Shown: positions 3,565 to 9,864 of the stretch, one piece after another
How positions within the stretch are numbered: the first letter of the stretch is position 1
Layout: every line of letters begins with the position of its first letter
Virus record (IMG/VR): IMGVR_UViG_2663763339_000002
Location: 1-9,864 of that record
Length of the DNA stretch: 9,864 nt
Direction: 5' to 3' (one strand)
Source of the DNA: a virus
Lineage: Duplodnaviria; Heunggongvirae; Uroviricota; Caudoviricetes
Program-made: the position numbers and the translations under genes
The notes under the pieces: model-generated
Told to the model about the DNA's origin: nothing
Database searches by the model: none
Seen by the model: only the letters and a program-made list of their open reading frames with translations

Positions 3565-3987
3565 TTAAAACGGTATGTTATCCCCGTACGGATCATCATT
3601 TCCCGCCTGTTGTTTTGCCCTGTTCAGTGCATCAGTGGCCTGCCCCTGTTGGCCTTTTTTGCCGCCCGGTCGCGCCGTTCGCGCACTGATTACGCTGTCT
3701 GCGATAACCTGCCAGCCCTGCCGCGTTTCGCCGTTCTGGCCTGTCCACTGGCTTACCTGCATGTTACCCGCCACGCTCACGAGTTCGCCTTTGTGGTGCT
3801 TTGCCAGTGCGTCGGCCTGTCTGCCAAACGCCAGGACGGATAACCACATCGTCGCCGTTCCGTCATCGGCCTGGCTGCACGGCAGGGGAACCGCCATACT
3901 CGCCATCGCCATTTGTGTCCCTTTGCTGGTGGTCTTTAACTGCGGGTCAGCCACCAGCCGCCCGTAAGCCGCTATCTGTGCTGTCAT
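3565..3987 (-). CDS. ssb: Single-stranded DNA-binding protein (SSB-like), 140 aa
   Basis: N-terminal OB-fold pattern (IAAYGRLVADPQLKTTSKG; WTGQNGETRQGWQVIADSV) and C-terminal acidic tip ending DDPYGDNIPF, compare bacterial SSB DDDIPF. ATGA overlap with the upstream gene. Confidence 0.7.
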   Translation of the reverse strand: MTAQIAAYGRLVADPQLKTTSKGTQMAMASMAVPLPCSQADDGTATMWLSVLAFGRQADALAKHHKGELVSVAGNMQVSQWTGQNGETRQGWQVIADSVISARTARPGGKKGQQGQATDALNRAKQQAGNDDPYGDNIPF

Positions 3988-4237: not shown

Positions 4238-4448
4238 GCCCACCTGTGCCCACTTTTTCTGCCCACTTTTCATGGTTTCCCACTTCGTCCCACCTGGGAT
4301 TTTGTGGTTTTATATCGTACTGTTTCATAAGTATTTTTTTAGTGCCCACTTTTTGGGATGTATACACGTGGGAAAGTGGGCGATTTTGTTAAATTCCAGT
4401 TAAATTACCCACTACTCCCACTTTTAACGCCCACTTTTTACAGTGGGT
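4238..4448. repeat. Iteron cluster with AT-rich spacer: candidate origin of replication
   Basis: At least 8 direct copies of (G)CCCAC(TTTT) (starts about 4238, 4248, 4261, 4279, 4289, 4344, 4408, 4417, 4429) and inverted copies (GTGGG near 4368, 4376, 4444), with an AT-rich stretch at 4296-4340. Lies immediately 3' of rep. Confidence 0.6.
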
Positions 4449-5844
4449 GAACATCATCCCCATCGACGCAAATCACGCCGTCTTTTTCCAGTTTGGCTAA
4501 CCATCGTTTAAGGTGTTTTGTGTCATATCCCAGCTTTTTCATGTCATCACGTAGCAGCGGGATCGTACATTTATCACCATGCTGTATACGCGACCGGATA
4601 CAACCCCATAAAGCCGTGTGATTTTCCGTCTTGTTCCCGGCCTCCTCTATGCGCTCCAGTTCAGCAGGGGCGCGGGGAACGTCAATCACCACCATGGACA
4701 CAATCTCTTCGCCATCTGTATCGGTGAACACCTCCACGCTTTTAAGATCGTATGCACTCTCTTTTGGCTCCTCTGCGTCCTTCATCTTCGTACACGCCGC
4801 CACCAGTGCTGTAACCTCTGAATTTTCCCGGCTGATTCGGTACTCTGCATCAAGCGCGGCACGGAATGCGCTGGAACCGCGCGCCCCCTTTGTTTCATCC
4901 TTGCCGGAATGGTGAACCACCAGCACCGTGGCCCCTGTGGCCTGCTTTATCGCGTCACACCCCTGGATAAATGCGCCCATATCGCGGGAATCATTTTCAT
5001 CATTTCCACCAAAGCAACGGGCCAGCGTGTCGATCACAATCAGCCGCACATTTTCGCCCGTTCTGCTCTTAACAAGTCCGGCAGTCCTGATAACCTGCTC
5101 CACATAGTCAGGCGATGCGGGGAAGACAGGCGCGTTAACGATGCACAAATCTGTAACCACCTTGTCATGGGTTATCTCCCACGCCTTAACGCGGCGTTTT
5201 ACGCCTATACTGCCTTCGCCAGCGATATAGATAACAGCGCCCTTACTTACCCTGCGGCCTCCCCATGCCATACCTGTGGCAACATGGCACGACCAGGAAA
5301 TAGCCAGGAACGATTTATAAGAACCGCTGGCCCCGTAGGTGCTGCATAATGACTCAGCCGGAATAAGCCCCTTAATTACGTAGCTTTGCTGCGCGTCGAA
5401 TCCCTCAGAACCCCATGAGATGGGAAGTGTGATTTTTCGCTTTCCACCATTCATGACCAGACTTTCCCCGCGTTCCCAGGTTTCTTTAAGCCGCGGTAGT
5501 TGCTCGCTCCAGTCCTCCAGCAGTTCGAAATTCTCTGAAAGTAACCGTGCTTCCTGGACACCTGCGATCGCCAGTTTGGTGGCAATGGTCAGCATCTGCA
5601 TATCGTCCAGGTTTCCGGCGCGTATGACCTTTGCTCTGTATCGTCCTTCATCAACAATCTGTAAATTGTCCAGTTCGCTTAACTGATAACGGCCCAGGTA
5701 AACCGGAGGGATGGGATCGCCTGCTTTTTGGGCCTGTGCAATCATGTAATGTTCTGCAAAGGAGTGAGCATTATCACCCGCAAAAATAACCGCCTCAGTG
5801 TGTTTATCTTTCGGTAACAGTTTTACGTTCGGTGCCAGTTTCAT
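4438..5844 (-). CDS. Replication initiator, RecA-like (AAA_25-type) ATPase, 468 aa
   Basis: P-loop-like YGASGSYKS, Walker B-like VRLIVIDTL, sensor TVLVVHHSGKD; basic C-terminal region may be a DNA-binding domain. ATG 5842-5844 overlaps the upstream stop. Iterons directly downstream. Confidence 0.8.
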   Translation of the reverse strand: MKLAPNVKLLPKDKHTEAVIFAGDNAHSFAEHYMIAQAQKAGDPIPPVYLGRYQLSELDNLQIVDEGRYRAKVIRAGNLDDMQMLTIATKLAIAGVQEARLLSENFELLEDWSEQLPRLKETWERGESLVMNGGKRKITLPISWGSEGFDAQQSYVIKGLIPAESLCSTYGASGSYKSFLAISWSCHVATGMAWGGRRVSKGAVIYIAGEGSIGVKRRVKAWEITHDKVVTDLCIVNAPVFPASPDYVEQVIRTAGLVKSRTGENVRLIVIDTLARCFGGNDENDSRDMGAFIQGCDAIKQATGATVLVVHHSGKDETKGARGSSAFRAALDAEYRISRENSEVTALVAACTKMKDAEEPKESAYDLKSVEVFTDTDGEEIVSMVVIDVPRAPAELERIEEAGNKTENHTALWGCIRSRIQHGDKCTIPLLRDDMKKLGYDTKHLKRWLAKLEKDGVICVDGDDVHPL

Positions 5845-6596: not shown

Positions 6597-6828
6597 AACC
6601 CCCCCCATTTTCACAATCAGTAATCAGGATGGCTTTAGCCTCATTCAGCGCCATATCAGCACTAAGTTGCATTACAGCCAGTGAGTGAGGAACGAAAGCC
6701 CCGGCATATTCTGTTTCAGTGGTGGCGTGCTTATGCGCTTTGTCTGCGATAACAGAAATATCAATCAGCGCATCCATCAGCGTTCTGATAGCTTCGGCGG
6801 CTGCGTCCGGACGGGTGTTATTGCACAT
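6589..6828 (-). CDS. Hypothetical protein, 79 aa
   Basis: ATG 6826-6828 preceded by strong RBS AGGAGG. Confidence 0.55.
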   Translation of the reverse strand: MCNNTRPDAAAEAIRTLMDALIDISVIADKAHKHATTETEYAGAFVPHSLAVMQLSADMALNEAKAILITDCENGGGYA

Positions 6829-7024
6829 GGCGTACCTCCTGACGAATACGGGCGGCGAATACCATCACGCAACCATCAGGAGATTGCTGGCGCGCTTCCT
6901 GTTCGCTGGTGGCCTCAATGGTAATCACGCGCGGTTGTGCCGTGCTCAGGGCGATAAAACGCCAGATGTATTTATTCAGGTTGTACGAGTCCCGCCCTTG
7001 CGGGTGTCTGGTATAATTTCTCAT
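6818..7024 (-). CDS. Hypothetical protein, 68 aa: the C-terminal part of the 354-aa track ORF; the rest of that ORF is judged spurious
   Basis: Internal ATG 7022-7024 preceded by GAGG; the downstream 68 aa have ordinary composition whereas the upstream part is Cys/Ser/Arg-rich and overlaps the plus-strand genes. Confidence 0.35.
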   Translation of the reverse strand: MRNYTRHPQGRDSYNLNKYIWRFIALSTAQPRVITIEATSEQEARQQSPDGCVMVFAARIRQEVRHVQ

Positions 7025-7104
7025 AGCTGCCTCGATACGCTTTCTATCGTTGGTAGTTAGACGCCCTGCATGTGTTGCGAGCACTGCGGGGCGTTGCTCT
7101 TTTA

Positions 7105-7156
7105 GGTGTATTTCACCTCTGCTTTTTAATTTACTCACTGGTGAAATACACTTCAA
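7105..7156. promoter_or_regulatory. Divergent control region: two inverted operator-like copies with a candidate minus-strand promoter
   Basis: GGTGTATTTCACC (7105-7117) and GGTGAAATACAC (7140-7151) are reverse complements and each is internally symmetric (GGTG-N5-CACC). Candidate minus-strand -35 TTGAAG (7151-7156) and -10 TAAATT (7128-7133) with a 17-bp spacer covering the second site. Confidence 0.45.
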
Positions 7157-7217
7157 GCCTTTTTTTATCATTTTTTTTGCGTATACTGACATACACCAAT
7201 TTTTAGGAGATCCAGAA

Positions 7218-7397
7218 ATGGCAACTGGTGCAAAGAACGCAAAATCACAAATGACAACTGTCAGAATCCCACATGAAGTAATGGATGATATTGAGCAACT
7301 TAAAGAACCTGGCGAAAGTACCGCTGGTTTTTTAGTTACTGCCGCAAAAGGCGAGATCAAACGCCGCCAGCGTCGCAAGGCCAAAGAGCAGGAGTAA
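7218..7397 (+). CDS. Small ribbon-helix-helix-like DNA-binding protein, 59 aa (candidate element regulator)
   Basis: ATG 7218-7220 preceded by AGGAGA; TTVRIPHEVMDDIEQL fits a beta-strand-then-helix pattern; basic tail KRRQRRKAKEQE. Fold is inferred, not searched. Confidence 0.6.
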   Translation: MATGAKNAKSQMTTVRIPHEVMDDIEQLKEPGESTAGFLVTAAKGEIKRRQRRKAKEQE

Positions 7398-7454
7398 CCA
7401 TCACCAGCGCCGTGGTGTGAGTAACTACGGCGCATTGCTATGCAGGACAACACA

Positions 7455-7628
7455 ATGACCGATAAAGAATTGACCAAAACATTATCACCGACACGGAAAA
7501 GACGGCGCAGAAAGATAGAGCATGAATCAGAAAGATTCGCGCCATGTGCTTTTGCCCTTGAGCAATTCCTTAAAGAGTACAGGGAAAAGCGCTCATTGCA
7601 GGTATGGCAACGAACTGAACCAGACTGA
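7455..7628 (+). CDS. Small basic hypothetical protein, 57 aa
   Basis: ATG 7455-7457 with AGGA 7 nt upstream (alternative ATG at 7440); RKRRRRK stretch; followed by a plus-strand terminator. Confidence 0.4.
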   Translation: MTDKELTKTLSPTRKRRRRKIEHESERFAPCAFALEQFLKEYREKRSLQVWQRTEPD

Positions 7629-7707
7629 TTGCATTGCCCACCAGCCGCAAATGTGGCATTGTTGGCGATGCTCATGCGTTGGGGATAACGCGAAATTTGT
7701 GTCGCAG

Positions 7708-7736
7708 GGCCACCGTGACTGGTGGCCTTTTCTTTG
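7708..7736 (+). terminator. Intrinsic terminator ending the plus-strand two-gene unit
   Basis: Perfect 7-bp stem GGCCACC / GGTGGCC with a 6-nt loop, followed by TTTTCTTTG. Confidence 0.6.
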
Positions 7737-7773
7737 CCTGTTATCCGGCAATAGTGGCGCTTCTTCACACAGT

Positions 7774-7856
7774 TGATATAATTCCCCTGCACTGATCCAA
7801 TTTTTTCGCAGCAGGTTAATTGTTCGCAAGGGCGCTCCGGTAACGGGGCGCTTTTT
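7774..7856 (+). ncRNA. Candidate small RNA unit: extended -10 promoter plus intrinsic terminator with no ORF between
   Basis: TGaTATAAT at 7774-7782; hairpin GCGCTCC-GGTAAC-GGGGCGC (7832-7851) followed by TTTTT; no ATG or GTG between. Convergent with the 3' end of alpA. Confidence 0.25.
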
Positions 7857-7886
7857 GTTATGTGCATCGCGTTACGCCTCACACCA

Positions 7887-8093
7887 TTACGCAGCCGTTC
7901 CGCGCGCTTCTTCCTCGCGCTCTTTCAGCCAGGCCAGCACTTCATCTTCATACCAGCCAACACGACGCAGACCGATTTTGAAGCCTTTCGGGAATTTTCC
8001 GGCGTTGATCATGTCCTGTAGCGAACTGTCTGCCTTGATGCGCAGAATATTTTTTACTTCCTGACGGGTAAGTATTTTTCTGATTGTTTCCAC
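7887..8093 (-). CDS. alpA: AlpA-family phage transcriptional regulator, 68 aa
   Basis: GTG start at 8091-8093 (no in-frame ATG covers the HTH). FPKGFKIGLRRVGWYEDEVLAWL matches the AlpA signature recalled from E. coli CP4-57 AlpA (VGWIEAEIDEWL). Confidence 0.8.
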   Translation of the reverse strand: METIRKILTRQEVKNILRIKADSSLQDMINAGKFPKGFKIGLRRVGWYEDEVLAWLKEREEEARGTAA

Positions 8094-8162
8094 TATGTTT
8101 TACCTCGTTAATCCGGCGTATTCCGGTGATAAATACGGTAAAACAGGGCAGGGCGGGAAAAA

Positions 8163-8194
8163 CAGTACCCACCGTTTTAAAACGGTACTCACTG
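8163..8194. promoter_or_regulatory. Palindromic operator-like site upstream of alpA
   Basis: Perfect 16-bp palindrome ACCGTTTTAAAACGGT (8171-8186) inside a larger imperfect dyad CAGTAC...GTACTCACTG. Confidence 0.4.
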
Positions 8195-8228
8195 TTTTTT
8201 ATCTCATTGATTACGCTTTTCTTTCTGC

Positions 8229-8258
8229 AAAAAAATAGCGACCGCAAGGGGCCGCTAT
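8229..8258 (-). terminator. Intrinsic terminator after the 80-aa ORF
   Basis: Minus-strand RNA forms an AUAGCGGCC...GGUCGCUAU hairpin followed by U7 (plus-strand A7 at 8229-8235), 5 nt after the stop at 8264-8266. Confidence 0.5.
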
Positions 8259-8263
8259 TGTGA

Positions 8264-8506
8264 TTACCGTTTCCACTTCTTAGGCCGCCCACCGCATTTA
8301 AGGCTGGTGGGTCTCAGCACCTTGTCGATGCTTTCAGCCAGGTTTTTCGATGCGCCACGTGAGCGCAAAAAACTGACTACCTCGTGTTTTGTGGGGGCTG
8401 TTGATTTGTCTTCCGGATCGTATGTTGACCAGAATTCACGATTTGCCATTAACGCCAGTTGCAGCCCTTCGCCGCAAGCAGGGGATACCTTTTCATTGAA
8501 AAACAC
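8264..8506 (-). CDS. Hypothetical protein, 80 aa, between integrase and alpA; basic C-terminus GRPKKWKR
   Basis: GTG start at 8504-8506 with AAGGAG 8 nt upstream (alternative ATG at 8447-8449 has no RBS); own terminator downstream. Confidence 0.5.
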   Translation of the reverse strand: MFFNEKVSPACGEGLQLALMANREFWSTYDPEDKSTAPTKHEVVSFLRSRGASKNLAESIDKVLRPTSLKCGGRPKKWKR

Positions 8507-8622: not shown

Positions 8623-9864
8623 TTACACGGCACGGATACCCCTTTTACCACTGGCTATGGTCACTCCGGTAGCTGCGGCCTCTACAAATTCCCCCCACCA
8701 GCGCATAAGCACCACGCGCTTTTCCAGGTAGTTACTTCGGTTATATGCTCGCCTTACCTCGTTTGTGTCCACGTGTGCGAGTGCGGCCTCGATTACGTCC
8801 GGCTCGAATCCTTCCTCGTTCGCTGCTGTACTGAATATGGCGCGTAATCCGTGAGACACCAGCACACCAGCGTAACCCATCCGGCGCAATGCGGCGTTAG
8901 CGGTCTGGCTGCTCATTGGCAGCATCGGGTTTTTAAGGCTGGGAAAAACGTGTTCCCTGTGTGCGCTGATTGGCTTCATGGTTTCCAGTACAGCCATAGC
9001 CTGACCGCAAAGGGGGATCACGTGGTCACGGCGCATCTTCATGCGTCCGGCTGGAATCGTCCATGTTTCGGCATCGAGATCTATTTCTTCCCAGCGTGCG
9101 GCGGCTGCTTCGGCTGGGCGTGCTACGGTCAGCAGTTGCCACTCAATCAGCAATCTGGTTTGCCGTTCTATGCTGGCGACCGATAAATCGTGCATTAGCT
9201 GCGGTAGCTGTTCCGGTCGGATGGTTGGCATGTGCTTTTTGGTGGGTGAGGGGAATGCCTTGCGGACGTTCGCGGCGGTGTTGATGTCAATCAGCCCACT
9301 GTTGGCAGCAAAATCCATCACTTCATTGATGCGTTGTAAAACGCGTTTCAGGGTTTCCAGGTTGCCGCGTGCTTTAATGGGTGTGAGTATCTCAACAAAG
9401 CGGCGAGCTGTGAGGGTATCTATTGGCGTGTTTCCGATGTACGGGAATACGTATTTTTCCAGGGATCGCCAGATATCCTTAATCGTGTTGTAAGCCAGAT
9501 TCTGGCCTTTTTTCATCTCGTACCAGTCCGAGGCAACTTTTTCGAACGTGTTGCCCTTTTTCCGACTCTCTGCTTCACGTTTCCGGCGTTCGTGGTCCTG
9601 TGGGTCAACTCCCTTCGCTATGAGTGACCTGTATTCATTCCGTCGTTCTCTGGCATCGGACAGGGAAACATCATTCAGCGATCCGAGGCTGATGATAGTC
9701 CGTTTTTTATCTGCCGGGCGGTAGTACGTAAAACGCCAGATTTTTGATCCGGAGGGTTTCACCAGAAGAAATAATCCTCCGCCATCCTGCAGGGTGTATT
9801 CCTTTTCCCCTGGTCGTGCGTTTTTGATCTCCGTAATAGTTAGTGGGGTGGTTTTTCGTGCCAT
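8623..9864 (-). CDS. int: Tyrosine site-specific integrase, P4 / CP4-57 IntA family, 413 aa
   Basis: N-terminus MARKTTPLTITEIKNARPGEKEYTLQDGGGLFLLVKPSGSKIWRFTYY is the typical arm-binding domain of P4-type integrases; catalytic-region motifs (TVARP, HGLRAIF, RAYNRSNY). ATG is the last 3 nt of the window. Confidence 0.9.
   Translation of the reverse strand: MARKTTPLTITEIKNARPGEKEYTLQDGGGLFLLVKPSGSKIWRFTYYRPADKKRTIISLGSLNDVSLSDARERRNEYRSLIAKGVDPQDHERRKREAESRKKGNTFEKVASDWYEMKKGQNLAYNTIKDIWRSLEKYVFPYIGNTPIDTLTARRFVEILTPIKARGNLETLKRVLQRINEVMDFAANSGLIDINTAANVRKAFPSPTKKHMPTIRPEQLPQLMHDLSVASIERQTRLLIEWQLLTVARPAEAAAARWEEIDLDAETWTIPAGRMKMRRDHVIPLCGQAMAVLETMKPISAHREHVFPSLKNPMLPMSSQTANAALRRMGYAGVLVSHGLRAIFSTAANEEGFEPDVIEAALAHVDTNEVRRAYNRSNYLEKRVVLMRWWGEFVEAAATGVTIASGKRGIRAV

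Follow-up and report, generated by a model that had tools for sequence, protein, structure and literature searches.

A candidate ribbon-helix-helix repressor of the YlcI/YnfO family and its three co-varying promoter sites in Gram-negative PICIs

Ribbon-helix-helix (RHH) repressors whose operators overlap promoters are a known device, represented by Arc and Mnt of P22, CopG and omega. Bases are contacted in Arc by Gln9, Asn11 and Arg13. The Stl proteins are of the helix-turn-helix type, are larger, and are released when they bind a protein of the helper phage. In icd-ant coupling, downstream expression needs translation through the region. The omega repressor binds heptad arrays cooperatively (2bnw).

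The closest analogue of the switch described here is immI of P22, which combines the RHH repressors Arc and Mnt with the divergent promoters Pant and Pmnt and the sar antisense RNA. P22 immI controls an antirepressor, whereas the locus studied here would control a satellite replication operon. Arc and Mnt act on one composite operator as a dimer of dimers or a tetramer, whereas here we found three separate 11-13-bp sites lying 22-36 and 45 bp apart, and beyond the fold no sequence-family relationship of YlcI to Arc or Mnt was detectable. Omega (inc18 pSM19035) differs in its contiguous 7-bp heptad arrays, whereas the three sites of this locus are isolated and have palindromic arms around a variable 5-bp core. 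This locus resembles P1 c4-icd-ant and P4 CI control in its Icd-like first gene and in the predicted control of that gene's leader by RNA; C4 and CI are, however, processed from the sense transcript, whereas the structured RNA of this locus lies on the strand opposite to the operon.

In SaPIs and Gram-positive PICIs, the gene of the repressor Stl or Rpr is placed beside int and divergent from the excision/replication operon (PMC6092414), and the same placement was found here. An earlier note on this DNA had likened the layout to master-repressor control in other satellites. The divergent position agrees with that analogy, but the nearest counterpart is the RHH control of P22 immI and not the helix-turn-helix Stl of SaPIs. 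In contrast to the Stl systems, the candidate here is a predicted RHH protein of 59 aa, int and alpA are on the other strand and co-oriented with the operon, and AlpA-dependent induction would operate in parallel. As judged from sequence comparison, the position of YlcI and the geometry of its putative operators fit a PICI master repressor.

Gram-negative PICIs have been described as unidirectional, with AlpA as the activator. In EcCICFT073, AlpA is switched on by the helper phage and required for PICI induction, activates its own promoter, and alone suffices for excision and replication, and the authors stated that the global repressor of Gram-negative PICIs is unclear (PMC6092414). Enterobacter cf-PICIs list YlcI/YnfO together with Icd, and the one satellite paper found to name the protein calls it a 'prophage-associated protein' (PMC13612085). 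In the literature on YlcI/YnfO, Icd-like satellites, EcCICFT073 and cf-PICIs, we found no function assigned to the YlcI/YnfO protein. The 'putative repressor' of EcCIMP1 was also considered, and turned out to be a PerC/ANR-like protein unrelated to YlcI. Gram-negative PICIs and cf-PICIs are abundant and mobilise virulence and defence genes.

The island and its divergent switch

The window, which is the whole stretch of 9,864 nt analysed here, is an exact match to the chromosome of E. coli RM8082, where it forms a PICI-type satellite island of ~10 kb between yejO and tRNA-Pro/yejM. It was compared with Gram-negative PICIs of the EcCICFT073 type, for which we considered the absence of tail and lysis genes, a length of ~10-15 kb and a specific attachment site. 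The island agreed with this type in having int with an adjacent AlpA gene, a replication module, a capsid fusion, a DUF1441 gene and the tRNA-Pro site. Its gene order is that of EcCICFT073, and int, alpA, the icd-like gene, DUF4222, a replication protein, SSB, a capsid gene and a small terminase-like gene are common to it and to EcCICFT073/cf-PICIs. It differs in having a RepA-type helicase and a ClpP-capsid fusion, where CFT073 has a primase and a separate capsid gene.

All clear genes but one are on the minus strand. The integrase gene (8623-9864) is an intact ORF of 413 aa in the window and is flagged as frameshifted in RefSeq, and the island may be mobile or not. A small ORF lies between int and the gene of the AlpA-family regulator (7887-8093; PF05930, E 4.5e-8), which is upstream of the early operon, co-oriented with it and convergent with ylcI. 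A strong terminator-like hairpin (8259-8234, minus strand) separates the int-side genes from alpA, implying a separate promoter for alpA. The leftward early/replication operon begins with the Icd-like gene (6818-7024 in its 68-aa form; NF033153, E 1e-19; phrog_6196; RefSeq), followed by several small genes and DUF4222. The same strand carries the genes for the RepA-type helicase (4438-5844), SSB (3565-3987) and the ClpP-protease/major-capsid fusion (1031-2947), and the DUF1441 small-terminase-like gene.

The sole clear plus-strand gene in the window is the ylcI-like ORF of 59 aa at 7218-7397, the candidate repressor gene, which is preceded by the Shine-Dalgarno sequence AGGAG at 7205-7209. Another plus-strand ORF (7440-7628), which matched phrog_21027, had no homologue among the other loci and for that reason was not counted in the switch.

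The 59-aa protein matched NF041551 (YlcI/YnfO) over residues 9-50 with 64 bits against a cut-off of 30 (E 9e-18), and the RefSeq name of WP_000190457.1 gives the same family. The model of the protein has the strand-helix-helix fold of RHH proteins. In its N-terminal strand, residues 13, 15 and 17 are hydrophobic and residues 10, 12, 14 and 16 polar, which is the alternation of an RHH strand; Ser10 and Arg16 are invariant. The hhalign program placed residues 11-32 on residues 8-29 of Arc (P 0.0035), so that residues 12, 14 and 16 fall on Gln9, Asn11 and Arg13. The fold was predicted as a monomer, and the palindromic GTG/CAC arms of the sites described below fit a two-fold symmetric binder. Other searches with this protein returned no RHH family in Pfam at E up to 0.1, only sub-threshold noise, no sequence relatives in the PDB at E up to 10, a best Foldseek match of E 2.4, and no homologue by tblastn in 50,697 phage records.

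Upstream of ylcI, the earlier note had pointed to two operator copies, GGTGTATTTCACC (7105-7117) and GGTGAAATACAC (7140-7151), and both are present exactly there. The first, which we call O1, has the form GTG-N5-CAC with the core TATTT. The second, O2, is better delimited as the 13-mer GGTGAAATACACT (7140-7152), which is the reverse complement of O1 at 12 of 13 positions. In a repeat search, the pair extended to 17-nt arms (7101-7117 and 7140-7156) that are 88% complementary with 22 nt between them. The two copies had been described as internally symmetric, which holds for the GGTG/CAC(C) arms of each, but the 5-bp core is asymmetric. A third site, O3 (ACTGACATACACC, 7185-7197, core ACATA), had been missed. 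GGTG-N5-CAC occurs in the window only at O1 and O2, and no further copies of the sites beyond chance were found elsewhere in it.

The sites are placed on two divergent promoters. The leftward one has, on the minus strand, the -35 TTGAAG (7156 to 7151) and the -10 TAAATT (7133 to 7128) that had been proposed from the sequence, separated by a 17-bp spacer. The ylcI promoter has TATACT as its -10 (7182-7187, plus strand) and a weak, T-rich region in place of a recognisable -35. From these elements we infer starts near 7121 and 7194, respectively. O2 occupies the first 11 bp of the leftward spacer, and its final C doubles as the last base of the -35. O1 would fall within the predicted leftward transcript, at about +5 to +17, so that the placement given earlier, one copy in the promoter spacer and the other past the start, is upheld. 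O3 covers the last two bases of TATACT and the predicted start of ylcI, and this fusion is 31 bp upstream of the ATG. A generic sigma-70 consensus scan of 6800-7500 and 7350-8350 called no promoter, the leftward and ylcI promoters included; the assignments therefore rest on the conservation described in the next section.

Conservation of the sites and co-variation with the protein

Relatives of the 59-aa protein formed 179 clusters across Enterobacterales. By scanning one genome per species, 77 loci were found via the protein, and the 200 nt upstream of each homologue were compared after grouping by the N-terminal strand residues. Three copies of GTG-N5-CAC were present in every strand group. 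In 48 loci that could be compared without gaps, the centre of O2 was at -72 and that of O3 at -27 relative to the ylcI ATG, with an invariant spacing of 45 bp. The conserved columns were the GTG/CAC arms, TCAA beside O2, TAAnnT 17 bp on, a T-rich tract, the nearly invariant GTATACTG of the TATACT/O3 region, and the Shine-Dalgarno sequence; the N5 cores were the variable columns. The leftward promoter is thus conserved in these loci as TTGAnG (TCAA on the plus strand), a 17-bp spacer and TAAnnT. In related loci, O1 is at the leftward -10 or start, O2 is against the leftward -35 and O3 is fused to TATACT.

The position of O1 was less strict. Its centre is 35 bp from that of O2 in the window, and 22-26 or 34-36 bp in related loci; these spacings are not phase-constant, so cooperative binding cannot be assumed. 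Among 54 loci with three recognisable sites, O1 was direct to the other two in 31 and inverted in 23. The inversion described in the earlier note is therefore true of the window, but the orientation is not conserved. In a distant branch (L067-L078; Serratia, Gilliamella, Xenorhabdus and Pectobacterium) with longer homologues and an ...IRFP strand, the same three-site layout was seen with 12-bp sites and a 6-bp core, for example GTGCATAAACAC.

The variable cores changed together with the protein. The mean N5 distance within one locus was 0.38 of 5. Between loci it was 0.43 of 5 when residues 12 and 14 were shared, and 3.51 when they differed there. The correlation of operator distance with residues 12 and 14 (Spearman 0.59) was the highest of the segments tried, compared with 0.42 for the whole strand (residues 10-17) and 0.11-0.35 for the N-terminus, the core-facing strand residues, either helix and the tail. 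At least 14 core classes were present among the 54 loci with three sites. AAATA/ACATA occurred with the strand QMTTV, AACAC with LQVSV, TCAGC with KKLEA, AATCG with QQLNA, TGGCC with QALKA or QSLKS, and TCTTA with QSVTA, QSVTV or QSITV. The code of residues 12 and 14 was not one-to-one, as Lys12/Ser14 was found with GCACC in L028 and with a TCGGA-like core in L024.

Because the operator adjoins the gene, linkage alone would give some co-variation, and recombinants were therefore sought. L049 and L056 share a left flank of 1.3 kb including icd (96.5% identical), L036 and L058 a right flank of 2.5 kb (93%), and L018 and L048 a right flank of 2.1 kb with alpA and int (94%). In each of these pairs, both the cores and the YlcI strand differ. 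Flanks of the mosaics overall were 90-96% identical over 0.6-2.5 kb. The junctions, at about -180 to -140 and about +140, indicate that the exchanged unit consists of the three sites and the N-terminal ~45 residues. Short of a formal phylogenetic test, the mosaics and the concerted change at all three sites speak against linkage as the sole cause.

A Salmonella locus (P0120) provided a prediction in advance. Its protein has the strand LQVSV, with helix 2 and tail identical to those of the window protein, and from its strand class AACAC cores were predicted. The locus carries GGTGAACACCACC, GGTGAACACCACG and CTGAACACCACC, in which GTGAACACCAC is present three times as predicted.

The module was also found in EcCICFT073 itself (L083 9440-9870, which is NC_004431 ~1380440-1380870, E. 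coli CFT073). There the ylcI homologue C_RS30120 is divergent from the icd-like C_RS30125, the strand is QALKA, and the sites are GGTGTGGCCCAC twice and CTGTCCCCCACC, with the cores TGGCC, TGGCC and TCCCC. Both locus tags seem to have been added to the annotation at a later date. Within the literature searched, the proposed role of the protein is new, as are the layout with three sites, the cassette by which specificity is exchanged and the presence of the module in EcCICFT073.

Genomes with 2-4 such elements always held different operator/strand classes. These were Xenorhabdus innexi (L015, L028, L031 and L066), X. mauleonii (L017, L035, L048 and L061) and 11 other genomes, and the chance of all co-resident classes being different was ~0.02 by rough arithmetic that takes no account of the tree. 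Different classes in co-resident elements are the pattern expected of immunity groups, as far as sequences can tell.

In six loci (L028, L033, L050, L060, L061 and L066) the N-terminus is ...D(N/H)(V/I)NNKS and not MATG.KNAKS, and the arms are CTG...CAG and not GTG...CAC. The comparison suggests that the N-terminal tail reads the outer bases of the sites.

Proposed repression and other readings of the sites

We consider it likely that the YlcI/YnfO-family protein is an RHH repressor of the early/replication operon that also regulates itself, acting through the three GTG-N5-CAC sites. The 59-aa RHH-like protein had been named as the candidate repressor from the window alone, and promoter placement, co-variation, mosaics and the blind prediction now give this proposal comparative support. 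From the sites and their positions on promoter elements, the predicted RHH fold and a co-variation with ylcI only, we infer binding and the direction of regulation. A YlcI dimer would read the three sites of 11-13 bp. O2, in the spacer against the -35, and O1, just after the start, would jointly block the leftward early operon, that is, the icd-like gene, the small genes, DUF4222, the RepA helicase and onward. The third site, over the -10 end and start of the ylcI promoter, implies autoregulation, which would be negative. Sites on core promoter elements are the geometry of repression, and the protein was therefore read as a repressor that would limit its own synthesis. Arg16, which does not vary, probably reads the conserved arms, and strand residues 12 and 14 probably read the variable N5 core. 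Each ylcI cassette would form its own immunity class.

Expression of alpA alone induces EcCICFT073 (PMC6092414), so that the repressor, if real, would not be the only or dominant control. AlpA may drive transcription from upstream that runs antisense through ylcI, across the switch and into the early operon. Such read-through would bypass the repressed promoter and interfere with ylcI. Two intrinsic terminator-like hairpins on the plus strand between ylcI and alpA (7706-7729 and 7828-7855) would end ylcI transcripts before alpA, and the terminator scan found no comparable minus-strand terminator between alpA and icd. Since alpA is on the same strand as the operon and this terminator is lacking, a bypass by read-through is plausible.

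Other readings of the sites were weighed against repression by YlcI. The sites might be bound by AlpA, the Icd-like protein, a different protein of the island, or a factor from helper or host. For AlpA, which regulates these islands, DNA binding is known (PMC6092414), and phrog_6196 and phrog_1743, which the Icd-like protein matches, are labelled 'transcriptional repressor'. However, the cores differ between L049 and L056 although the icd flank is shared, and between L018 and L048 although the flank with alpA and int is shared, and the ylcI strand differs too in every mosaic pair. The existence of at least 14 core classes, with the three sites of a locus changing together, could not be explained by a host or helper factor, and we regard binding by any such other factor as quite improbable. 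That YlcI binds the sites and is something other than a simple repressor, such as an activator, an architectural or recombination-directionality factor or a centromere-like binder of the ParG or omega kind, is unlikely. The sites are on core promoter elements at near-fixed positions in 48 loci, which is the classic geometry of repression, ylcI is placed where the master repressor of Gram-positive PICIs sits, and the sites number only three and form no array.

The inverted repeat could also act as a hairpin in nucleic acid, such as a terminator, an attenuator or a processing site. The 17-nt arms could pair, GCCTTTTTTT comes next on the plus strand, and a generic scan flagged each copy as a weak terminator-like hairpin. 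But an O1-O2 hairpin is ruled out as the functional unit by the 31 of 54 loci in which O1 is direct to O2, the third copy and the fixed 45-bp spacing of O2 and O3 have no role in it, and the conserved RNA structure of the region is elsewhere, at 7033-7095. We judge this reading very improbable. As for a chance occurrence in an AT-rich spacer, short repeats are common and O3, with 3 mismatches, is not significant by itself within the window; yet only ~0.012 matches to a 13-mer with at most one mismatch are expected per window on both strands by simple arithmetic, and tens of divergent loci repeat the arrangement of three sites with other cores, so that chance is hardly credible.

If YlcI/YnfO is the repressor, a family without an assigned function gains a role, and the quiescence of these islands gets a mechanism that is testable in EcCICFT073. 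If so, the operator/strand classes, of which there are at least 14, would be immunity groups and predict co-residence or cross-regulation of islands, and the pairs of strand residues and 5-bp cores would be data for an RHH recognition code and for orthogonal repressor-operator pairs. In leftward operons of related islands (L079-L081, the Salmonella loci of P0120), proteins with Phage_ASH (PF10554) and 'Derepression' (PF25738) domains were found, and the repressed operon may accordingly include helper-derepression functions of the P4 type.

A stop-free frame across the switch and a predicted structured RNA beside it

The switch had been described as a region between the RHH gene and the operon, and it is not simply intergenic, as a stop-free frame and a structured RNA run through it or next to it. 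The frame (6818-7882, minus strand, 354 aa) starts with a GTG 4 nt after the alpA stop, runs antisense to ylcI and through the whole switch, and continues into the Icd-like domain. Over the 201 nt upstream of ylcI, the frame that continues the one antisense to ylcI was stop-free in 52 of 63 non-redundant loci, where dinucleotide shuffles gave an expectation of 0.9; the other two frames were stop-free over the same 201 nt in 1 and 0 of the 63. Its median open length was 288 codons, compared with 24 and 6 in the other frames, and as a rule the long ORF begins where the preceding gene stops or overlaps that stop.

The N-terminal extension of the frame had no homologue in the other loci, and no codon-position bias was found in it (52:53:55 in three aligned pairs, and 19:26:19 with four E. 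coli relatives added). Two E. coli relatives have the frame broken inside the switch. In RefSeq its annotation is inconsistent and varies between Icd-like proteins of 68, 104 or 157 aa and 'icd-like' or 'BRO-N' pseudogenes. Judging from these sequences, what is selected in this frame seems to be the absence of stop codons, not the sequence of the protein. Our best guess is that translation-coupled read-through explains the stop-free frame. By analogy with icd-ant, translation through the switch region may be needed for downstream expression.

On the plus strand, an RNA of ~80 nt antisense to the icd leader and ribosome-binding site was predicted at 7009-7103 from its fold and compensatory changes. 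A perfect extended -10, TGGTATAAT, is at 7009-7017, and TAnnnT hexamers are at the equivalent place in other loci, even with different overlapping codons. Hairpin 1 (7033-7049) has a loop complementary to the icd Shine-Dalgarno sequence, and hairpin 2 (7060-7095) is followed by a U-rich tail that extends to 7103, just before O1. The plus-strand fold was the more stable one in 56 of 58 loci (mean -22.9 against -16.8 kcal/mol), and G.U pairs over the 58 loci numbered 146 on the plus and 18 on the minus strand. RNAalifold gave two hairpins with compensatory change in 17 of 22 pairs. We also considered hairpin 7060-7095 as part of the leader of the leftward mRNA, which was rejected because the G.U asymmetry assigns it to the plus strand. 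A search of the whole window against Rfam, on both strands at E up to 1, returned no C4, isrK, CI or other family, only one spurious lncRNA match. The conserved fold predicts that the RNA would be antisense to the icd ribosome-binding site, which is reminiscent of the sar RNA of P22 immI.

It is possible, though we put it forward tentatively, that the repressor cassette is nested antisense in the stop-free frame such that ribosome-coupled, AlpA-driven read-through escapes Rho and the local controls, which together would form a toggle. The nested cassette would comprise ylcI, both promoters, the three operators and the antisense RNA. Ribosomes would follow RNA polymerase on AlpA-driven transcripts, and the read-through would evade both repression at the promoter and control of the ribosome-binding site by the antisense RNA, while colliding with ylcI transcription. 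If true, this toggle of convergent transcription would be how the helper phage, via AlpA, overrides the master repressor of a Gram-negative PICI. The stop-free frame and the antisense RNA suggest more layers than in any satellite switch that we found described.

The 851-bp stretch around the module (6800-7650) was matched in 1653 of 5426 complete E. coli genomes. Just 3' of ylcI, 7399-7646 was found with 95-99% identity in ~800 E. coli genomes, among them O157:H7, O55:H7 and Nissle 1917. This segment is conserved more widely than the neighbouring DNA, and its annotation varies.
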